The notes: generated from the sequence alone by a model not told the origin. DNA of 23,639 bases from a virus (IMGVR_UViG_2874945390_000005), one strand, 5' to 3'; counted from the stretch's first letter, positions 1 through 21,548 are shown. Made by a program: numbers and translations.

Positions 1-1073
1 TCATTTGTTGATTTCAATTTTGTCCCATTCTCTCCCTCGGCTGTCCCTATACCGCGCCGCCATTGAATCTGATTTATGCCCGAGAAGACGTTGAGCAAAT
101 TTATCGCCAATCTGGTTCCGGTATAGCCTCGCTGACAGGCTACGCAGTTCATGGAATGTTGGCGGGTCTCCATCAAATGAGAGTCCGGAGGCATTTCTCG
201 CCTTTGTAAAATACTTTGATACTGTTTTCGGGGAAAGCGGATCGTGATGCTTTGATGCGATTATAGTTTCACTGCTGCTGGCCTCCCTGCATTTCTGTAG
301 TGTATCAACCAGTGAGATATTGAGCGCGTCAATCGTTAGCGTCAGCGGAATGGCGAGCTTAGCCCCTGTTTTACCCTGCTCAATGTGAAGATGGTTGTCG
401 TTTATGTCTGACCACTTCATTCTGCATAAATCGCCCACTCTCTGCCCTGTAATGACGGCCAAATCCATTGCCAGCCTCAGCCAGATAGGGAGAGGTTCGG
501 CTGCATGGTAAATCTCGACATACTCATTAGCTGTCAGCCTTGAGCGCCTTACTTCTGACTTTGCTGTGCGGGTTGCTGTTACCGGATTCGTAGCCACATG
601 CCCCTCGGCTATTGCTTCACGAAAAACGTCAACAAGGGTTGACCTGATTAATTTTGCGGAAGCCGCTTTACCTTCTGCTACGTAGGTATTTAGCATTGCT
701 GCCACCTCTTTCGTTGATATGTCAGTGAGCGGTTTGTCCGGCAATTTTCTTCGAATTGCCCTGATTTTGCTGGCGTAGTCGAGTAGAGTTTTCGGTCTGA
801 TGCCCCTCTCGCTGAGGATTGTTTCATATCGGTCAAGCCACGCATGAAGGGTGATTGAGTCAGCGCCTTTAATCCTGTCTATCAGTGACTCGCGCCCGCT
901 GTCTGATAGCAACTCAATGTTGGCCTGTATTGCTTCAGTGATTGCTATCCTCCTGTCTCGCCTAATCCGAACTCTTTACCCGTCCTTGGGTCCCTGTAGC
1001 AGTAATATCCATTGTTTCTTATATAAAGGTTAGGGGGTAAATCCCGGCGCTCATGACTTCGCCTTCTTCCCAT
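1..1073 (-). pseudogene. int: Lambda-type tyrosine integrase, reading frame broken near 945-962
   Basis: Minus-strand ATG at 1073-1071 overlaps the xis stop. The N-terminal frame gives MGRRRSHERRDLPPNLYIRNNGYYCYRDPRTGKEFGLG... then TAG at 947-945. The 303-codon ORF 1..912 continues in another frame (...ITEAIQANIE... ending REWDKIEINK) and carries the catalytic C-terminal domain. Both halves resemble lambda Int as recalled. Confidence 0.8.
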
Positions 1074-1269
1074 TTCTGATCCTCTTCAAAAGGCTACCTG
1101 TTACTGGTCGATTTAAGTCAACCTTTACCGCTGATTCGTGGAACAGATACTCTCTTCCATCCTTAACCGGAGGAGGGAATATCCTGCACTCGCGTACCCA
1201 TCGACGAACTGTTTCAAGGCTCCTTGGGCGTCGCTGGCGTGCGTTCCACTCCTGAAGTGTCAAGTACAT
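1051..1269 (-). CDS. xis: Excisionase, near-identical to phage lambda Xis as recalled
   Basis: 72-aa ORF MYLTLQEWNARQRRPRSLETVRRWVRECRIFPPPVKDGREYLFHESAVKVDLNRPVTGSLLKRIRNGKKAKS; ATG at 1269-1267; stop overlaps the int start. Confidence 0.9.
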   Translation of the reverse strand: MYLTLQEWNARQRRPRSLETVRRWVRECRIFPPPVKDGREYLFHESAVKVDLNRPVTGSLLKRIRNGKKAKS

Positions 1270-1353
1270 CGCAAAGTCTCCGCAATTACTCGCAAGGGAG
1301 CGAGTATTGGTTTATTTTCTCCAACAAAAAAGGAGCCGAAGCTCCTTTGATGA

Positions 1354-2010
1354 TTAAAATTCGAATTGTCTCGCCCGAAGGCTTTTCAGCATTGGTTTTG
1401 CCCGTTCGAAAAGGGCGCTTGCTTGGTCAAGTCGTGTCGCCTCCCTTAGCAGTACATCTCTGTTTTTCGTCACCGTGTAAAAAGTTTCAAACGCGATGTT
1501 ATACAGCTTGCTCGTGTATGATGAGTTCAGTTCCTTCAATATCGGGTACAGACGTTTGCAGATGTCCAGCGCATTCTCCATCTGTACCTGCATATAGCAA
1601 AGGAGGATGATTTCTTCGTCTGTGAATTGCTGCTGGATCTGCGGGTGCTGTTCCGCTTTGCCCGGGCTGAAATAGCAGTCTTCCAGTTTTTCGAACACTT
1701 CCCACGCCTGATCGGTTTCGAGCATTTTTGCGTGGCGGGCTGCGCCTCGTTCTGTCCAGAGGATGAGGTGCTTTGCTCGCGGTGCAACTAAGTTACTGTG
1801 AGTAACCTTGTTCTTAAATTCCCGCAATTCACCACCCTCCAGTTTAAAGTAGTGCTTACCACAAACAAAACGCCCGGCATTGCGCGTATAGTTCACTTTA
1901 ATGTTGTTGGTCTCAGTGCCGTAAAGTCGTGCCAGTAGTTCGGTAGTGATGACGGGGATGTGGTTATAGGTAATTGGGGAAAGGGATTCAACAGAAATTT
2001 GAGTAGCCAT
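1354..2010 (-). CDS. ORF6N/KilA-N-type domain phage protein (antirepressor-like), paralog A
   Basis: ATG at 2010-2008 (MATQISVESLSPITY...) preceded by AGGA. N-terminal about 110 aa show the ORF6N-like pattern (ITY..VITTELLARLYG...RHAKMLETDQAW). The ORF-track start at 2136 is probably an upstream artefact. Confidence 0.65.
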   Translation of the reverse strand: MATQISVESLSPITYNHIPVITTELLARLYGTETNNIKVNYTRNAGRFVCGKHYFKLEGGELREFKNKVTHSNLVAPRAKHLILWTERGAARHAKMLETDQAWEVFEKLEDCYFSPGKAEQHPQIQQQFTDEEIILLCYMQVQMENALDICKRLYPILKELNSSYTSKLYNIAFETFYTVTKNRDVLLREATRLDQASALFERAKPMLKSLRARQFEF

Positions 2011-2712
2011 GGTTTTATGTCCTATCGCATATTTTGAATTCACCCCTTTTGAGAGGGTGGTCGGGCGCTCAAAACCGGCGATAGACGGCGGGCATATTTC
2101 CCTTGCGGGTGTTTTATTAGCCGCACGCCCGACCATTGAATTCTCAATGTCGTAGACATAAAAAAATCCGCATAACTGACGGGGCGGTTTCCGCTATCGC
2201 AAAGGTGTTTTGAGCACCATGAAGCGGAATATAGCCCCGTTAATGCGGTGTTGTCAAATCATGTAGGCCTTATCTTGCTGTAAGCCGCGCCATTCGGGCT
2301 TTTCCCCACATTTGGGGAAAACTATCTTGTCAAAATCATGCAGCCTTTCGCTCTCCTTCGATGAGTTCCTCTATTTTGTGCACTCCAGCCTCGTTGTACC
2401 GAAATGTTTCAACCTGCTTGTCATTGTGCGCCGATTTGTCGATGAACCACTTCCCGTACTTTTCTGTTTTGAGCATGTAGGTGTTGGCTATGCGTCCTAC
2501 CTTGTTGGCTGAAATACCGTAGCGCTGGCCGACTTCCGTAGCAGAGTAGTAGTGCTCTGAGATAGCTGGCAGGGGTACAACATCGCGACCAACAATCGGG
2601 TTGAACACTCCAGCTACTGCTGCCTGCTTTGATTCTGAGGACAGATTCGGGAACATATTCACCAGTCGATCCGCCACGTTCAAAGCTATTTCCATGGCTC
2701 GCGCACGGTCTA

Positions 2713-3854
2713 AATAGCTGCGCTTAATACCGCTACACTTTTGCCAGTCCATGTTTGCCTCCGGGGAATGGGCTGACGGTTTCCATAAAATGGCGAACTT
2801 TTTTCAACAGTTGCCACATTGAGCGGCACTGATGATTACGCGTTATTGTGTCGTGAAGTGCCTGCCATAGCCGTTCAACATGATTCACCCATGGCGAGTA
2901 AACCGGCTGATAAATGACCCTGAACTTCGGGTTCTCCTTCAGCCAGCTCTGTGTTTCCCGGCTTTTGTGGATAATGTAGTTGTCCACGATCAGCGTGATG
3001 GTTTTCGCCCGACGGTATGTCGCTTTAAGCCGCTTCAGCAGGCTGATGAACAGCGCCGAACTTTTGCTGTTGCCGCCCACATAGCTGACTTTACCTGTCC
3101 CGCTGTGCAGCGCTCCGGCCAGATAATATTTTTCATTCTGTCCCGGCGTGACCACCCGTTTTTGCTGTCCGCGCAGTTGCCAGTCCGCACCGATTTTGGG
3201 ATGAAGATGGATATCCACTTCATCTTCATAAAAGACCGGATGCTCTGCGCTGCATTCGTCCAGTGCTTTATGGATTGCTGCCATCTTTTCATCTTTATGC
3301 GGGTCACGGATACGCAGAGTTGGCGCAGCCCTTCGCCACACAATCCCCGCAGACGGCAACCAGCGGCGAACGGTTCCGGCATTTAACTGGCAACAGGTTA
3401 TCTCATTGATTTTTATTGCCAGCAGTTCTGTACTCCAGCGTGAACGCTGGTAGCCAAAGTCGCCGGGAGAATGTTTTACCAGCTCACGTAACAGTGTGCA
3501 ACGGCCAGCGACGGGCACGCCCGGCAGGTAATGATTTCAGTCCCTCAACACCCGACTGCGTGAACCAGTTAATCCAGCGTCCAACAGAGGAACGGGCGCA
3601 GCAGAGCGTTCTGGCAACGTCGCTGACACGGTCGCCCCGGTGCAGCATCAGCATGGCAGTCAGTCTGCGGGCATAATTTTTATCGTGTGTTTTATGGATG
3701 GCTTTCTGCATCAGGCGTCGTTCGTCACGGGAAATTGGTGCTATGATCGGCATTGCTCAGTCCGGTTGGTGATTTGTTTTGATTTGGCGATTGATCAGAT
3801 CGCACAATCCGGGCTAAGTTCCCTCAAAGTGATCTACTATTCCGCGCAGCTATT
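2713..3854 (-). mobile_element. IS630-family insertion sequence with TA target duplication (2711-2712 and 3855-3856) in a CTAG target
   Basis: Terminal inverted repeat aatagctgcgc at 2713-2723, reverse-complemented at 3844-3854. Flanks reconstruct to ggtcTAggct. Encodes an IS630-type transposase. Confidence 0.8.
2733..3753 (-). pseudogene. IS630-type transposase split into two overlapping frames
   Basis: N-terminal HTH part is ORF 3484..3753 (MPIIAPISRDERRLMQKAIHK...RRWPLHTVT*). The DDE part is ORF 2733..3518 (...CTLLRELVKHSPGDFGYQRSRW...). The frames overlap at 3484-3518, indicating a small indel. Confidence 0.8.
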
Positions 3855-4404
3855 TAGGCTACTTTCTGGTTGCGGTACTGGTTGAGGATGGTTGGCAACC
3901 TTTTCGCGCTGATTGAAGTAGCCGTCCTCCAGTTTTTCGAACACGTCCCATGCCTGATCGGTTTCGAGCATCTTCGCGTGACGGGCGGCTCCGCGCTCTG
4001 TCCAGAGGATGAGGTGGCGTGCATTTGGGGCAATTTTCACAAAGTAGTTTAAAGCTACTTTGTGTTTTAGCGCGCGCAGCTCGTCACCAACGACCTTGTA
4101 GAAGTGTACCCCCTCAACAAAGCGCGACTTGTTTTCATGATGGTTTTGCCGGATGCGCACAACATCCGTTCCGTACAACTGCGCCAATAGTTCGCTGGTG
4201 ATGACGTTGGTTTGTTTGTAGGTGATTGGTGAAAGTGTTTCGACAGAAATTTGAGTATTCATAGCGTCCTCACATTGGCTTTTGCATTGAAGAAAGCTTG
4301 ACGGTGAACTCGCCGTAACGAGTTCAGATAAAAGAAATCCCCGCGAGTGCGAGGATTGTTATTCATTGCCGATATTCACCTTTATCTCAAACACCTTTAT
4401 CGGC

Positions 4405-4647
4405 TTATCTCCTTTGCATGGCACGTAATTTTTTCAGATGGTTCTCCTGCTCTGTTTCAGCCAGGATCTGGTGATATTCTCTGTGATCAATGTGTTCGAA
4501 TAAATTATTGAATTTTCTGATGCACACCCTTCCAGGATAGCCATCCATCCTCTTGAAGAATACTGAGTGATCAGTACTACGAATGATTTTTACTGGATAG
4601 CCAGCGCTATCGGTGTATATCTGACCACGTTGAATCAGAGCGAACAT
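4405..4647 (-). CDS. Small phage protein, 80 aa (DUF4222-like by recall, uncertain)
   Basis: ATG at 4647-4645 with GGAG/AGGA upstream; MFALIQRGQIYTDSAGYPVKIIRSTDHSVFFKRMDGYPGRV... Confidence 0.55.
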   Translation of the reverse strand: MFALIQRGQIYTDSAGYPVKIIRSTDHSVFFKRMDGYPGRVCIRKFNNLFEHIDHREYHQILAETEQENHLKKLRAMQRR

Positions 4648-4651
4648 TCCT

Positions 4652-4735
4652 TTATCTCCAGCGGCAAATCGAATACATCATCAGTGCCACCGCCAGTGCG
4701 GTTCCTACCTCTTTGAATGCTTCAGGCCAGGTCAT
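4652..4735 (-). CDS. Candidate 27-aa hydrophobic peptide (MTWPEAFKEVGTALAVALMMYSICRWR)
   Basis: ATG at 4735-4733 overlaps the TGA of the upstream gene (ATGA). GGGAGG sits 7 nt upstream. TAA at 4654-4652 lies 4 nt before the next gene's ATG. Below the ORF-track length cut-off. Confidence 0.3.
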   Translation of the reverse strand: MTWPEAFKEVGTALAVALMMYSICRWR

Positions 4736-5127
4736 TGATTCACCTCCCGCTCAATATTTTTAAGGTCATTCTCCGCATACAGTATCGCTGTCCTGGCTGC
4801 TCGCAACCGCGCTTTGGCGTTTTTCTCTTCACGTTCAAGTTTTGCCACAGCTTCTCGAAGAGCGTCCCGCTTTGCATAAAGTGATTTAATCTCAGACACG
4901 ATGTTTTCGCCGTTTCTCGCGCGGTCGAGAACAAGTTCGAATGGATCTAAAGCCAATCCGCATCGGTTGCAGGTAATCGTACGATTCACTTCTGAAATTG
5001 TTGTACGGATATGCTGACAGCATTTTTGCTCGACGCTTTTTCTGTCGGTTATCACAACGTTGAGAAGTCCTTCCTCCTCTGATTTTGGCTGCACCAGGGT
5101 GATAACATTATCGCTGTTATCGTCCAT
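4732..5127 (-). CDS. Phage protein, 131 aa, Cys-rich motif plus C-terminal coiled-coil-like region
   Basis: ATG at 5127-5125 preceded by AGGAGG with a 7-nt spacer (MDDNSDNVITLVQPK...). The ORF-track start at 5193 lies inside IS2 and is rejected. Confidence 0.6.
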   Translation of the reverse strand: MDDNSDNVITLVQPKSEEEGLLNVVITDRKSVEQKCCQHIRTTISEVNRTITCNRCGLALDPFELVLDRARNGENIVSEIKSLYAKRDALREAVAKLEREEKNAKARLRAARTAILYAENDLKNIEREVNQ

Positions 5128-5177
5128 CACTTCACCTCCTGCGGCGGTTCTGGTAGCGGCATCCAGTGGATTTGCCC

Positions 5178-6083
5178 CTATATTTCCAGACATCTGTTAT
5201 CACTTAACCCATTACAAGCCCGCTGCCGCAGATATTCCCGTGGCGAGCGATAACCCAGCGCACTATGCGGATGCCATTCGTTATAATGCTCGAACGCCTC
5301 TGCAAGGTTCTTTGCTGCCGTTAACCCGTTTGGTTTGGGCATGATACTGATGTAGTCACGCTTTATCGTTTTCACGAAGCTCTCTGCTATTCCGTTACTC
5401 TCCGGACTCCGCACCGCCGTGTTCTTCGGTTCAAGTCCCAACATCCGGGCGAACTGGCGTGTTTCATTAGCCCGGTAGCATGAACCATTATCCGTCAGCC
5501 ACTCCACTGGAGACGACGGAAGATCGTTGCCGAAGCGGCGTTCCACCGCTCCCAGCATGACGTCCTGTACTGTTTCACTGTTGAAGCCGCCGGTAGTCAC
5601 CGCCCAGTGCAGTGCCTCACGATCACAGCAGTCCAGCGCGAACGTGACACGCAGTCTCTCTCCGTTATCACAGCAGAACTCGAACCCGTCAGAGCACCAT
5701 CGCTGATTGCTTTCTTTCACGGCCACTCTGCCTGTATGTGCCCGTTTCGATGGCGGTACAGCAGGTTTTCGCTCAAGCAACAGCGCATTCTGGCGCATGA
5801 TCCGGTAAACACGTTTGGCATTGATCGCAGGCATACCATCAAGTTCTGCCTGTCTGCGAAGCAGCGCCCATACCCGACGATAACCATACGTGGGCAGCTC
5901 TCCGATAACATGGTGTATACGGAGAAGCACATCCGTATCATCAGTGTGACGACTGCGGCGGCCATCCATCCAGTCATCGGTTCGTCTGAGAATGACGTGC
6001 AACTGCGCACGCGACACCCGGAGACAACGGCTGACTAAGCTTACTCCCCATCCCCGGGCAATAAGGGCGCGTGCGCTATCCAC
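5178..6083 (-). CDS. insD: IS2 transposase OrfB (InsD)
   Basis: 301-aa [52 protein letters not shown]... matches IS2 InsD as recalled. Confidence 0.9.
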
Positions 6084-6363
6084 TTTTTTGCCCGTCCATA
6101 TTCAACGGCTTCTTTGAGGAGTTCATTTTCCATCGTTTTCTTGCCGAGCAGGCGCTGGAGTTCTTTAATCTGCTTCATGGTGGCAGCAAGTTCAGAGGCA
6201 GGAACAACCTGTTCTCCGGCGGCCACAGCAGTAAGACTTCCTTCCTGGTATTGCTTACGCCAGAGAAATAACTGGCTGGCTGCTACACCATGTTGCCGGG
6301 CAACGAGGGTGAACCGCCCCGGGAATCCTGGAGACTAAACTTCCTGAGAAAGAGGTAAACAGG

Positions 6364-6686
6364 ATGACTAAAAATACTCGTTTTTCCCCCGAAGTCCGTC
6401 AACGGGCAGTCCGTATGGTTCTGGAAAGTCAGGGCGAATATGACTCACAATGGGCGACAATTTGTTCCATTGCTCCAAAGATTGGCTGTACGCCGGAGAC
6501 TCTGCGTGTCTGGGTTCGCCAGCATGAGCGGGATACCGGGGGCGGTGATGGAGGGCTCACCACCGCTGAACGTCAGCGTCTGAAAGAGCTGGAGCGTGAA
6601 AATCGTGAACTGCGCCGCAGTAACGATATCCTTCGCCAGGCTTCCGCTTATTTTGCGAAGGCGGAGTTCGACCGCCTCTGGAAAAA

Positions 6687-6690
<4 letters not shown>
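6364..6690 (+). CDS. IS629 OrfA
   Basis: 108-aa [45 protein letters not shown]..., IS3-family OrfA with HTH. Confidence 0.9.
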
Positions 6691-7573
<883 letters not shown>

Positions 7574-7790
7574 GTTCACAGATAAAACACTCTCCAGGAA
7601 ACCCGGGGCGGTTCAGGGAGACCGTCATCCCCGGTTCAAAGCTCTGCTGAACAATTGCGATCTTTTCCTGTGTGGTACGCCGTCTGCGTTTCTCCGGCCC
7701 TAAGACATCAATCATCTGTTCTCCAATGACTAGTCTAAAAACTAGTATTAAGACTATCACTTATTTAAGTGATACTGGTTGTCTGGAGAT

Positions 7791-8354
7791 TCAGGGGGGC
7801 CAGTCTATCCAGTGGGTTGCCTGTTCAATACCATTACCTGGCTTAACCGTTACATCTCCACGCCGGAATGTACCTCCGGTATAGCGTGCGGAGCATATTA
7901 GCGGTTCAACCAGAGAGCTATCGAAATTCACCGAAATAAGTACGTTCTGGCCCTTTTCAGGCATTCGATCACTACAGCTTATCCAACCATCCGGAATTAC
8001 CGGAGAGTTGCCCGACATCTCATTCAACTTGTAAGTCTGGCTTACAGGTTTGGCTTCCAGTTCTGCTATGCGCTTTTTTGCTGTTTCCAGCTCGCTCAGC
8101 AGTGTCAGCACAGTAGCCGGATTGGCTGCGGCGATGAATTCAGCATTGGCCTGCTGTTCCATTTGGAAATCTTCATCGAAACCGCTTTCAGGATGCGCTC
8201 CTTCAATTCTGCAAATAGGAAGATATCCAACAACTTCACGGTGAATTAGCGCATCATCAGCATCAAGTTTCTCCTCTCCATATTCGAGCGACCACACACC
8301 CCACGTTGCTTTCTCTGCCTTTTCACGCAGTGCCTGATAGTCAATTTCGCTCAC
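7791..8354 (-). CDS. Ea22-like / DUF551-type phage protein; native C-terminus displaced by the IS2 insertion
   Basis: GTG at 8354-8352 preceded by AGGAGG with a 6-nt spacer. ...[15 protein letters not shown] then runs into IS2. Removing IS2 and one TCCAG copy restores ...THWMPLPEPPQEVK*, the DUF551 C-terminal motif as recalled. Confidence 0.6.
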
Positions 8355-8551
8355 TGTTTGCCTCCTTTGCGCCACATAGCATTCAGATATTTGTTTTGAT
8401 TCACTGACGGAAAAGAATTTCTCTTAAGCAATTCCTCTCTCGATGGCATTGGCTTTACGCGTTGGCGAATAATCATTTCTGCCGGAAGAATGCCGGGATT
8501 GTATGCAAGTCCTCTCATGGTAAATTCCTCAGTCATTACTGATAGCGCCAT
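8351..8551 (-). CDS. Small phage protein (55-66 aa), translationally coupled to the downstream gene
   Basis: Stop TGA overlaps the GTG start of the Ea22-like gene (GTGA). An internal ATG at 8518 has GAGGA 8 nt upstream and may be the true start. Confidence 0.45.
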
Positions 8552-8718
8552 AGCGTGAGCGGTAATTACGCAGGCGCGGGTCGATATATTCAGGGAATTT
8601 GTCTATTGTCGCTTTTCGCAACGGTCTCATTGCTGTTTCGTTTGTTCGGTCCTTTGAGGTAGCCTGAGTTTAACGGACACTCCTTCCTGAAATAGAATGG
8701 CATCAGAAGGAGCTAATA

Positions 8719-9021
8719 ATGAGCAGAAAAACCCAACGTTACTCTAAAGAGTTCAAAGCCGAAGCTGTCAGAACGGTTCTTGAAAATCAACTTTCGATCA
8801 GTGAAGGCGCTTCCCGATTATCCCTTCCTGAAGGCACTTTAGGACAATGGGTTACCGCCGCCAGAAAAGGGCTCGGTACTCCTGGTTCCCGCACGGTGGC
8901 TGAACTGGAATCTGAAATTCTGCAACTGCGTAAGGCGTTAAATGAAGCTCGCCTTGAGCGAGATATATTAAAAAAAGCAACAGCGTATTTTGCACAGGAG
9001 TCGCTGAAAAATACGCGTTAG
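8719..9021 (+). CDS. IS600 OrfA
   Basis: 100-aa ORF MSRKTQRYSKEFKAEAVRTVLENQLSISEGASRLSLPEG...; A7G slippery run near 8970-8980. Confidence 0.9.
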   Translation: MSRKTQRYSKEFKAEAVRTVLENQLSISEGASRLSLPEGTLGQWVTAARKGLGTPGSRTVAELESEILQLRKALNEARLERDILKKATAYFAQESLKNTR

Positions 9022-9056
9022 TCGAACAATGGCGACAACAATTTCCCATTGAAGCG

Positions 9057-9875
9057 ATGTGTCAGGTATTTGGTGTATCCAGGAGCGGTTATTACAACTG
9101 GGTACAGCATGAACCCTCAGACAGAAAACAAAGTGATGAGCGGCTAAAACTGGAGATTAAGGTGGCACATATCCGCACTCGCGAAACATATGGAACCCGG
9201 CGGCTCCAGACGGAGCTGGCAGAGAATGGCATCATCGTTGGTCGTGACCGACTGGCACGTCTTCGTAAGGAGCTAAGGCTACGCTGTAAGCAGAAACGCA
9301 AGTTCAGAGCGACTACGAACCCGAACCACAATCTGCCAGTTGCGCCAAATCTGCTGAACCAGACGTTCGCTCCTACAGCACCAAATCAGGTCTGGGTGGC
9401 GGACCTGACGTATGTTGCCACACAGGAGGGATGGTTGTACCTCGCTGGCATCAAAGATGTTTATACGTGCGAAATTGTCGGCTACGCCATGGGAGAGCGC
9501 ATGACAAAAGAGCTGACAGGTAAAGCCCTGTTTATGGCGCTCAGGAGCCAGCGCCCACCTGCCGGGCTAATCCACCACTCTGATCGAGGTTCACAGTACT
9601 GCGCATACGATTACCGGGTCATACAGGAGCAGTTTGGTCTGAAAACATCAATGTCGCGTAAAGGTAACAGTTACGACAACGCTCCGATGGAAAGCTTCTG
9701 GGGAACGCTGAAAAATGAGAGCCTGAGCCACTATCGTTTTAATAACCGGGATGAAGCCATCTCAGTAATACGGGAATACATTGAGATTTTCTACAATCGT
9801 CAGCGTCGTCACTCTCGTCTGGGGAATATCTCCCCGGCAGCCTTCAGGGAAAAATATCATCAGATGGCTGCTTAA
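9057..9875 (+). CDS. IS600 OrfB (DDE transposase)
   Basis: 272-aa ORF with an IS3-family integrase core (...HHSDRGSQYCAYDYRVIQEQFGLKTSMSRKGNSYDNAPMESFWG...). Normally expressed as an OrfAB fusion by -1 frameshift. Confidence 0.9.
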   Translation: MCQVFGVSRSGYYNWVQHEPSDRKQSDERLKLEIKVAHIRTRETYGTRRLQTELAENGIIVGRDRLARLRKELRLRCKQKRKFRATTNPNHNLPVAPNLLNQTFAPTAPNQVWVADLTYVATQEGWLYLAGIKDVYTCEIVGYAMGERMTKELTGKALFMALRSQRPPAGLIHHSDRGSQYCAYDYRVIQEQFGLKTSMSRKGNSYDNAPMESFWGTLKNESLSHYRFNNRDEAISVIREYIEIFYNRQRRHSRLGNISPAAFREKYHQMAA

Positions 9876-10282
9876 AAAAAGAACAAATGGTAGTGTCCGC
9901 TATTGCCAGTACACCTCATTGACTTGATGAAATTGTGCACTTCAACCGAGGTTTGCAGCGGCGCGTTACTGAAGCCTTTAGGCCACACCCCGAACTTCTC
10001 TTTGTAGGTATGAGCGCACCATCCGTCACTCAGTGGCTTACCTGTCGCGTTGCGGTAATTCTGATAGCCCTTGATCTCACTCCACCACCGCTGTTTTTCC
10101 TCGCGGCTGTATTCGCGTTTCCCTTTGTTTACGCGAGAGAGTTTTCGATCGCGGTCTGTTGCCACATCATCGCCACCAAGAGGACGAAACCCACATTTGG
10201 GACACATGTGTACACCAGCAGGCTTCATGAAGTGGCATTTGGGGCATTCTCTGGGAAGTTTTTCAGCTTTTAACCTCGCCAC
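9872..10282 (-). CDS. Zinc-ribbon protein (CPKC...CPKC), 3' end replaced by IS600 sequence; native part 9919..10282
   Basis: GTG start at 10282-10280 lies 20 nt upstream of the helicase stop. MARLKAEKLPRECPKCHFMKPAGVHMCPKCGF... The last 15 codons are read from the IS600 right end. Confidence 0.5.
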   Translation of the reverse strand: MARLKAEKLPRECPKCHFMKPAGVHMCPKCGFRPLGGDDVATDRDRKLSRVNKGKREYSREEKQRWWSEIKGYQNYRNATGKPLSDGWCAHTYKEKFGVWPKGFSNAPLQTSVEVHNFIKSMRCTGNSGHYHLFFF

Positions 10283-17777: not shown

Positions 17778-18596
17778 ATGTGTCAGGTATTTGGTGTATC
17801 CAGGAGCGGTTATTACAACTGGGTACAGCATGAACCCTCAGACAGAAAACAAAGTGATGAGCGGCTAAAACTGGAGATTAAGGTGGCACATATCCGCACT
17901 CGCGAAACATATGGAACCCGGCGGCTCCAGACGGAGCTGGCAGAGAATGGCATCATCGTTGGTCGTGACCGACTGGCACGTCTTCGTAAGGAGCTAAGGC
18001 TACGCTGTAAGCAGAAACGCAAGTTCAGAGCGACTACGAACCCGAACCACAATCTGCCAGTTGCGCCAAATCTGCTGAACCAGACGTTCGCTCCTACAGC
18101 ACCAAATCAGGTCTGGGTGGCGGACCTGACGTATGTTGCCACACAGGAGGGATGGTTGTACCTCGCTGGCATCAAAGATGTTTATACGTGCGAAATTGTC
18201 GGCTACGCCATGGGAGAGCGCATGACAAAAGAGCTGACAGGTAAAGCCCTGTTTATGGCGCTCAGGAGCCAGCGCCCACCTGCCGGGCTAATCCACCACT
18301 CTGATCGAGGTTCACAGTACTGCGCATACGATTACCGGGTCATACAGGAGCAGTTTGGTCTGAAAACATCAATGTCGCGTAAAGGTAACAGTTACGACAA
18401 CGCTCCGATGGAAAGCTTCTGGGGAACGCTGAAAAATGAGAGCCTGAGCCACTATCGTTTTAATAACCGGGATGAAGCCATCTCAGTAATACGGGAATAC
18501 ATTGAGATTTTCTACAATCGTCAGCGTCGTCACTCTCGTCTGGGGAATATCTCCCCGGCAGCCTTCAGGGAAAAATATCATCAGATGGCTGCTTAA
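17778..18596 (+). CDS. IS600 OrfB (copy 2)
   Basis: Protein identical to the copy 1 OrfB. Confidence 0.9.
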   Translation: MCQVFGVSRSGYYNWVQHEPSDRKQSDERLKLEIKVAHIRTRETYGTRRLQTELAENGIIVGRDRLARLRKELRLRCKQKRKFRATTNPNHNLPVAPNLLNQTFAPTAPNQVWVADLTYVATQEGWLYLAGIKDVYTCEIVGYAMGERMTKELTGKALFMALRSQRPPAGLIHHSDRGSQYCAYDYRVIQEQFGLKTSMSRKGNSYDNAPMESFWGTLKNESLSHYRFNNRDEAISVIREYIEIFYNRQRRHSRLGNISPAAFREKYHQMAA

Positions 18597-18989
18597 AAAA
18601 AGAACAAATGGTAGTGTCCGCTATTGCCAGTACACCTCATACTGGCCCCGTCGCGATCGCCTGGATACAGCTATCGACTACCTGAACACTCAGGCCGGTG
18701 AAGGTATCATCCTGAATGCTGATCACATCCCTGAGCGTGACGTCACTCCCGCATCAGATGAGATTATCAATGAGATCACTCAGGCAATCACCGAAATTAA
18801 CAAGACATGGGATGACCTGCTTCCCTTATGTTCCAAAACATTCCGTCGCACGATTGCATCACATGAATATCTCAGTCAGGAAGAAGCTGTCAAAACGCTT
18901 GATTTTGTCAAAAAGAAAGCTGCCAGAAACAAGGCCACGGCGGAAGCGAAAATTCACGCCACCACGGAAAATAGCAGCGAGGCCGTGTC

Positions 18990-19679
18990 ATGACACCAGA
19001 AATTATTCTCCAGCGAACTGGCGTGGATATTACCAGCCTCGACCAGGGCGATGATGGATGGCACAAGCTGAGACTCGGTGTTATCACTGCTTCAGAAGTT
19101 CACAATGTGATAGCAAAGCCACGTTCCGGCAGCAAATGGCCTGATACAAAAATCTCATACTTCCACACCCTGCTGGCTGAAGTTTGTACCGGCGTGGCAC
19201 CGGAAGTTAACGCTAAGTCGCTCGCATGGGGAAAGCAATACGAAGATGATGCCCGTGCCATCTTCGAATTTATCGCGGATGTTACCGTCTCGGAAACGCC
19301 AATAATTTTTCGTGACGAAAGCATGCGCACCGCCTGCTCTCCCGACGGTTTATGCAGCGACGGTAACGGCCTTGAGCTTAAATGCCCCTTCACTTCCCGC
19401 GACTTCATGAAGTTCCGGCTTGGCGGCTTTGACGCTATCAAGCCTGCTTACATGGCCCAGGTGCAATTCAGCATGTGGGTTACAGACAAGGACGCCTGGT
19501 ACTTCGCCAACTACGACCCACGCATGAAGCGTGAAGGCCTGCATTATGTCGTGGTCGAGCGGGATGAAAAGTACATGACGAGTTTTGATGAGATGGTGCC
19601 GGAGTTCATCGACAAAATGGACGAAGCACTGGCGGAAATTGGTTTTGTATTTGGAGAACAATGGGGGGTTAATAACTAA
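18990..19679 (+). CDS. exo: Lambda-type 5'-3' exonuclease (Red-alpha / YqaJ family)
   Basis: [47 protein letters not shown]...[20 protein letters not shown]... is close to lambda Exo as recalled. ATG overlaps the recT stop (ATGA). Confidence 0.9.
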
Positions 19680-20158
19680 TGGATGAAGTGATTTTTACTT
19701 ATAACGAAGAATCAGCACTGACCGCCGGACAAGGTGGTTTTATTACCGAAACGGGTGCGCATATCATTAACATCACCGAAGCAGAACTCAAGCAATCAGA
19801 AAAAGGTGCCCGATTCATTGAGTTTTCTGGAGAATCCGACGACGGACGGAAAATCCAATATCTCAGTGTTTGTGTTCAGAAGAATGACGGCACTGAAAAT
19901 AAATTTGGGGCGAGCATTATTCACGCCATGATGGGATGCACAGGAATTGGGCAGTTAACGCAACATATGGTTTCCGTCAGTAAATATGTTGCACCTGAGT
20001 TTCACGGAAAGAAAATCGGACTCGTCCTCCAGAAAGTATTAACCACAAACAGAAAGACTGGCGCAGACAGTTACCAGATGGAAATCCGCATTCCATTCAT
20101 TGCAGAAACAGGGCAGACACTGAAAGAAAAACTGAAGGAAAGAAACCAGAAACTGTAG
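19679..20158 (+). CDS. Hypothetical phage protein, 159 aa
   Basis: ATG overlaps the exo stop (TAATG); function not recognised. Confidence 0.6.
   Translation: MDEVIFTYNEESALTAGQGGFITETGAHIINITEAELKQSEKGARFIEFSGESDDGRKIQYLSVCVQKNDGTENKFGASIIHAMMGCTGIGQLTQHMVSVSKYVAPEFHGKKIGLVLQKVLTTNRKTGADSYQMEIRIPFIAETGQTLKEKLKERNQKL

Positions 20159-20379: not shown

Positions 20380-21528
<1,149 letters not shown>

Positions 21529-21548
<20 letters not shown>

Follow-up and report, generated by a model that had tools for sequence, protein, structure and literature searches.

A one-base deletion in an HK022-type integrase gene of an IS-rearranged lambdoid prophage remnant in Shigella boydii

Features of the int-xis region

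The stretch of DNA analysed here (23,639 nucleotides, referred to as the window) corresponds to positions 379,846-403,484 of CP026836.1, the 5,106,737-bp chromosome of Shigella boydii (ATCC strain), and the reverse complement of window positions 1-12752 is identical to that record. An excisionase gene (xis) of 72 codons lies intact at positions 1051..1269 of the minus strand and overlaps the start of the integrase gene (int) by 23 bases. Its product matches the Pfam family Exc (PF07825; E=3.9e-41) over residues 1-72 and is identical to Xis of phage HK022 at 72 of 72 residues and to lambda Xis at 71 of 72. The exact protein, named VXIS_BP434, occurs on at least 1000 contigs. A reading made earlier from the sequence alone (the sequence-only reading) had described xis as intact, almost identical to that of lambda and overlapping the int start, which agrees with these results. 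Comparison with lambda and HK022 also identified a TTGC-N6-TTGC motif just upstream of the xis ATG (1282..1295, minus strand). It occupies the position of the CII-dependent pI promoter site of lambda and is retained here; by analogy with lambda, it may have that role.

The int gene starts with an ATG at 1073 on the minus strand but lacks one continuous frame for all three integrase domains because a TAG follows after 42 codons. The 5' fragment is an ORF of 42 codons (945..1073, minus strand) that comprises 38 native codons (MGRRRSHERRDLPPNLYIRNNGYYCYRDPRTGKEFGLG) followed by ETGG and the TAG at 945-947; its product matches Arm-DNA-bind_1 (E=2e-18) over profile positions 1-44 of 74. The remaining 318 codons of int lie in a different frame and run to the stop codon at positions 1-3. 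This second frame is open on the minus strand from 975 to 3-1 and appears in the ORF list as a 303-codon frame at 1..912 (minus strand). The 3' part of the gene, from the rest of codon 39 to codon 357 (1..959, minus strand), encodes the core-binding and catalytic domains (Phage_int_SAM_1 and Phage_integrase, the latter with E=7e-42) without further lesion, one base off the frame of the start codon.

Alignment of window positions 1-1290 with the int-xis region of HK022 and with an intact homologue from E. coli RMDEC465 contains a single gap, located between 959 and 960. The sequence-only reading had proposed that the N-terminal 42 codons of int end at a TAG and that the catalytic domain continues in another frame after a switch near 945-962; the ORF at 945..1073 confirms the former, and the gap falls inside the zone given for the latter. 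The single-base deletion site (959..960, minus strand) was defined by alignments against HK022, RMDEC465 and two further relatives, L008 and L005. On the gene strand, GGC CGA GAC is changed to GGC GAG AC, so that codon 39 (Arg) loses its first base: the relatives have GGC-[C/A]GA-GAC (Gly-Arg-Asp) in this region and the window has GGCGAGAC. The base in question is a C in L008, L005 and HK022 and an A in RMDEC465. Because the closest relatives, L008 and L005, carry the C, the deletion in int is best described as a contraction of CC to C on the gene strand. In the deposited chromosome the site corresponds to CP026836.1 380,804/380,805, where the undeleted form would be GGCCGAGAC and the deposited form is GGCGAGAC. 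Putting one C back yields an uninterrupted int ORF of 357 codons, free of other defects, and the differences from HK022 near the deletion are synonymous in this restored frame.

Integrase identity and predicted effect of the break

The restored Int protein is identical to HK022 Int at 344 of 357 positions (96.4%), to the intact Int of E. coli RMDEC465 at 351 of 357 (98.3%) and to lambda Int at 266 of 355 (75%). At the DNA level, int-xis shows 95% identity to HK022, mEp235, mEp506, H19J and several Stx1a phages, against about 77% only to the lambda/434/HK97 group. The gene had been taken for a lambda-type int in the sequence-only reading. It proves to be HK022-type on the strength of its 96.4% protein identity to HK022 against 75% to lambda, and the label 'lambda int' was dropped for this reason.

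The restored 357-aa protein contains Arm-DNA-bind_1 (PF09003; E=2.7e-28) at residues 1-68, a core-binding SAM-like domain (PF02899; E=2e-14) and a catalytic domain (PF00589; E=8e-42). The catalytic residues of lambda Int follow the established order R-K-H-R-H-Y, and lambda R212, K235, H308, R311, H333 and Y342 all match identical residues in the restored protein. Five positions reportedly separate the core specificity of HK022 Int from that of lambda Int (Dorgai, Yagil and Weisberg 1995); at all five the restored Int is HK022-type, not lambda-type. The gene is an HK022-type integrase by descent and, as deposited, a pseudogene.

Lambda Int binds the arm sites through residues 1-64 and the core sites through residues 65-356 (PMC9791396). 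The break described here cuts the arm-binding domain at residue 38, and the 42-aa product matches the first 44 of 74 profile positions only. Because codon 39 lies inside the arm domain, no product with a whole arm-binding domain is expected. Arm binding is required to assemble the excisive complex in lambda, and by analogy the broken int would be unable to support Int/Xis excision, since that complex could not form without it. Two internal starts exist in the downstream frame: its first in-frame start, a TTG at 912, lacks a Shine-Dalgarno sequence, and the ATG at 696, which was chosen by gene callers, would give a 231-aa fragment beginning at residue 127.

Integrase lesions in related prophages

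In related prophages at the same mdtA-adjacent site, the int gene is broken in other ways. L008 (CP026875.1, 17176-18293), which is 99.85% identical to window positions 1-2712, is intact at codon 39 but has a +1 lesion of its own, an extra C at the equivalent of window position 226, near codon 283, and its Int product is truncated to 300 residues. In L005 (2577-3696), int is without codons 1-13 and xis is missing, and in L012 (1685-3696) an IS3-family element lies just upstream of the ORF that begins at residue 127. L013 and seven similar places are at or near contig ends. Four kinds of lesion are thereby represented in Shigella and E. coli: the frameshift at codon 39, the frameshift near codon 283, a 5' deletion and a truncation by an IS element.

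Because L008 is intact at codon 39 and carries its own lesion elsewhere, the common ancestor of the window and L008 would have had an intact int, which has decayed repeatedly. The data are consistent with a lesion that arose after these lineages split, under relaxed selection. The parallel int lesions in related strains are a mildly interesting point and offer a small, clean example of Shigella prophage decay, in which the same int gene is broken differently in each strain.

Mutation or consensus error

Searches for other copies of the deletion gave no match. A BLAST search of 5,426 E. coli genomes located the surrounding 70-nt stretch in 923 complete genomes, none of which shares the deletion; the best matches among those listed are identical to the stretch except for the one-base gap. 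A degenerate pattern across the junction had no match in species-representative genomes, look-up of the exact 42-aa and 303-aa products returned no record, and the 231-aa product of the internal start matches only its own chromosome or genomes with other int lesions. The deletion is private to assembly CP026836.1 and is either very recent or an artefact.

The codon-39 deletion is probably a real mutation. It is possible, if somewhat unlikely, that the missing base is instead a consensus error of the deposited assembly, in which case the int gene of the strain would be intact and the other lesions real. The deletion is seen in one assembly only, it is a length change in a single-base run (CC to C), and the rest of the int ORF is perfect, all of which an artefact would explain. 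The same assembly contains four more private one-base length changes in short single-base runs within 10 kb of phage DNA (at 10268, 11402, 15319 and 20289), together with a private 10-bp deletion at 11566. The change at 10268 splits a helicase gene into ORFs of 371 and 118 codons, against 501 aa in L009/L010, and that at 15319 splits ash/rha into 118 and 199 aa, against 296 aa in L009/L010. Private indel events and private substitutions number 4 and 11, respectively, in 6.9 kb. The sister assembly CP026875.1 likewise shows five one-base indels that are private to it over 6.9 kb. A proportion of 4 to 11 is higher than natural change tends to give and is characteristic of consensus errors in long-read assemblies.

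The host flanks argue against such an error. Compared with K-12, mdtABC (6,994 bp) has 180 substitutions and zero indels, and in the wrbA-ymdF-rutG flank indels are intergenic only, rutG and ymdF being full length with no indel in their coding sequence. The density in phage DNA, about 0.36 per kb, predicts roughly three indels in mdtABC; the indels are thus unevenly spread. Two-base runs are not usual error sites, and the independent, differing int lesions in relatives indicate that the gene does decay in these lineages. A single-base frameshift found in one long-read assembly nevertheless needs read support before it is read biologically. For annotation, beyond which the finding matters little, the appropriate label is HK022-type integrase pseudogene, subject to confirmation by sequencing reads.

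Attachment site

The left end of the prophage was expected just outside the window, and this holds: the P' arm and the att core fill about 80 bp past the int stop. The P' arm next to the stop codon shows no difference from HK022 across the arm-type sites, and the core lies about 70 bp beyond the stop (L003 12800-12840, about 50-90 bp to the left of window position 1). The core reads CTTAA-ATAAGGA-AAGTTG here, compared with CTTAA-GGTGAAT-AAGTTG in the Stx1a/HK022 type, and the 7-bp overlap is about AATAAGG, compared with AGGTGAA in HK022 and the Stx1a phages. The core and overlap are assigned here by analogy only and should be regarded as putative.

Homology to K-12 on the left begins at 2,153,413, 5 bp before the start codon of ibsA, and runs through sibB/ibsB into mdtABC. 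Integration at this point parts the ibsA toxin ORF from its upstream region. That the element occupies the sibA/ibsA-mdtA locus, and not the HK022 site, would follow from the different 7-bp overlap. Because an intact int is found at the mdtA junction in E. coli strains such as AMSHJX01, this junction is a natural attachment site for this Int variant. Attachment inside the sibA/ibsA toxin-antitoxin locus through HK022 half-sites and a different overlap, as these sequences suggest, would be of mild interest.

Two candidate references for the crossover were set aside. The AMSHJX01 prophage was considered as a source of attR; its far end is ybhB-bioA, the flank of the lambda site, so that it appears to be rearranged itself and provides no attR. 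The Stx1a phages, whose int is 95.9% identical, use the HK022 core and not the core found here.

IS elements, gene content and chimeric structure

From attL, the gene order is int, xis, ORF6N/antirepressor genes, an IS2/IS3 cluster, ea22, DUF2737 and IS600. After IS600 follow the split helicase gene, cro-like and cI-like genes, HicAB, ash/rha, kilR and gamL, and then recT (cut by a second IS600), a YqaJ exonuclease gene, an IS3-family element and HNH. Past the window lie Dam and resolvase genes and then ymdF-rutG. No terminase, portal, capsid, tail, holin or endolysin gene was found among the gene calls with Pfam between attL and wrbA, and recT, the helicase gene and ash/rha are all interrupted.

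The element contains at least five IS copies. An IS630-family insertion with TA flanks (2713..3854, minus strand) disrupts an ORF6N/antirepressor-like gene and is absent from L008. An IS3-family cluster at 5178..7575 is common to L008; it encodes an IS2 TnpB-like protein of 301 aa, and a second element within it has ORFs of 108 and 206 aa as well as an ALIL frameshift pseudoknot. ALIL is a frameshift stimulator of some IS3-family transposase genes, and the pseudoknot (6645-6761, plus strand, 116 bits) is situated at the orfA/orfB overlap of one IS copy. A further IS3-family element (20380..21548, minus strand) lies downstream of the YqaJ-type exonuclease gene.

The two IS600 copies, both on the plus strand, differ in their flanks. 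Copy 2 (17376..18639) lies in recT as a simple insertion flanked by a 3-bp duplication (TAC). At copy 1 (8655..9918), the int-side fragment (1-8654) meets a prophage segment of opposite orientation; the bases on either side of this copy, ctt and ttg, do not match, and there is no target-site duplication. The immunity and early region (9919..17375), which carries the split helicase gene, the cro-like gene, a cI-like S24 repressor gene, HicAB, ash/rha, kilR, gamL and the 5' part of recT, is inverted relative to the int-side fragment when the collinear L008 is used as reference. By the same reference, the inverted part extends over window positions 9916-19985 as compared with window positions 1-8413.

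Homology to the host on the right starts inside the 5' end of wrbA, at K-12 position 1,067,687, which is 1.09 Mb from the left junction (the host flanks correspond to L003 12753-13430 and L007 18534-20690). A search of the window for the att core TTTCCTTATTTA, allowing one mismatch, gave nothing, and the next 6 kb contain no exact copy. Because IS600 copy 1 joins opposed segments without a target duplication, the arrangement suggests a megabase inversion between two prophages, a model drawn from the flanks and one IS junction. Both segments are collinear at the mdtA site in L008, so that the ancestry proposed for the segments is tentative. In annotation, the region should appear as a chimeric, IS-rearranged remnant from two lambdoid prophages and not as one prophage fixed by one mutation.

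Several small elements were also detected. Within the immunity region, the HicA/HicB toxin-antitoxin pair (13744-14339, minus strand) has the cI-like repressor gene on one side and the ash/rha region on the other. Rfam matches to isrK (14998-15074, plus strand, 61.6 bits) and to C4 antisense RNA (15099-15186, plus strand, 78.6 bits) immediately precede the Phage_ASH/pRha genes, an arrangement that resembles antisense antirepressor control of the P1/P7 ImmI type. A match to Rfam sRNA-Xcc1 (2051-2134, minus strand, 78.1 bits) covers the 5' end of an antirepressor-like ORF, the 260-codon ORF6N/P22_AR_C ORF at 1354-2136.

Decay of the element and alternative explanations

The frameshifted int is likely to represent late neutral decay in an IS-ridden chimeric remnant of two prophages. 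An HK022-type lambdoid prophage is inserted 5 bp before the start codon of ibsA, and in the deposited sequence one base is missing from the CC dinucleotide at int codon 39. Translation from the normal start would then end after 42 codons, within the arm-binding domain, leaving the core-binding and catalytic domains untranslated or, at best, produced as an arm-less fragment from a weak internal start. The int-side 8.6 kb is joined via IS600 to an early region in the opposite orientation, which appears to belong to a second prophage, one that ends inside wrbA. In the simplest model, an inversion of about 1.09 Mb would have occurred between IS600 copies in the two prophages and would leave attL without a usable partner. 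The int lesion would thus be one late step in the neutral decay of a remnant that is unable, for other reasons, to excise or grow. Shigella chromosomes are known for IS-driven decay.

The sequence-only reading had proposed that the dead integrase fixes the element in the chromosome. In that form the proposal is not borne out, as the element appears to be immobile independently of int: one of its ends is in sibA/ibsA-mdtA and the other in wrbA, no partner att core is found in the window or in the 6 kb beyond, and the element carries at least five IS copies while no morphogenesis or lysis genes are called. With a defective recombinase gene, unpaired att sites and lost lytic genes, the element is, as far as its sequence can tell, a grounded remnant.

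The order of events also bears on the role of int. The IS2/IS3 cluster is common to L008, which is intact at codon 39, and some of the damage is consequently older than the int lesion; the int ORF has no secondary decay, which marks the lesion as young. Another reading is unlikely: that HK022-type integrases, with core half-sites unchanged and a different 7-bp overlap, opened a distinct attachment site inside the type I toxin-antitoxin locus sibA/ibsA, and that int was independently knocked out there at least four times, a pattern that would indicate selection for grounding more than neutral decay. It is quite improbable that loss of Int was the primary event that grounded a competent prophage, possibly under positive selection because it prevents lethal induction, with the other damage following later. 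Inactivation of the recombinase is a recognised route to 'grounded' prophages (reviewed in PMC6379469), and the presence of different int lesions at the same site in four lineages could be read as repeated selection. However, the deletion is private, and the relative that is 99.85% identical is intact at this codon yet shares the 5178-7575 cluster. The youth of the lesion, in an ORF without secondary decay, also speaks against an Int-first course, and int (1074 bp) may merely be a large target in DNA under no selection.

A functional break, whether a programmed -1 frameshift that gives low-level full-length Int or a working split recombinase, is very unlikely and was rejected: the frames do overlap, AGGAGG occurs just before the TAG, and an engineered binary lambda Int made from separate N- and C-terminal domains has been reported (PMC9791396), but the rescue overlap is 31 nt only (975-945) with no X XXY YYZ heptamer and no run of at least four bases, the cut falls inside the arm domain (residues 1-64) and not at a domain border, the TTG start at 912 has no Shine-Dalgarno sequence, and the arrangement is conserved in none of the other genomes searched.

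Relation to known systems

Late neutral decay of int in a rearranged remnant, the reading preferred here, has close parallels. An inactivated recombinase in a lambdoid remnant is a textbook 'grounded prophage' (PMC6379469). Nothing in the present case is mechanistically new. As in other grounded lambdoid prophages, the recombinase gene is dead, late genes have disappeared, and the element has undergone IS insertion and rearrangement (PMC6379469). Examples include the Qin prophage of E. coli K-12, which carries intQ', and a defective, IS-ridden Stx prophage found in Shigella dysenteriae 1. Unlike these examples, the element described here has a single young point deletion in an otherwise perfect int and apparently combines two prophages, the one at sibA/ibsA and the other at wrbA.

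The integration region resembles HK022 (AF069308) in gene order, in the 23-base xis/int overlap, in the P' arm and in the core half-sites CTTAA.../AAGTTG. It differs from HK022 in the one-base deletion at int codon 39, in the 7-bp overlap and in the locus occupied. With lambda it shares the domain architecture of Int, the first 55 Int residues (all identical), Xis (71 of 72 residues) and the TTGC-N6-TTGC sequence upstream of xis, whereas Int overall reaches 75% identity at the protein level and about 77% at the DNA level, and the core-specificity residues and the attachment site differ.

The E. coli AMSHJX01 prophage (NZ_CP030939.1) has the mdtA junction in common with the element described here and is 96.4% identical to it in DNA sequence over int-xis. 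Its HK022-type int is annotated as complete, with 357 codons, and it has kept a full lambda-like set of late genes, unlike the element in the window. The AMSHJX01 prophage (L017/L018, 1,772,300-1,828,000) is complete and lambda-like and carries nleH, cif and espJ. Its ends lie at mdtA and at ybhB-bioA, and this genome, too, seems to be rearranged between prophages.
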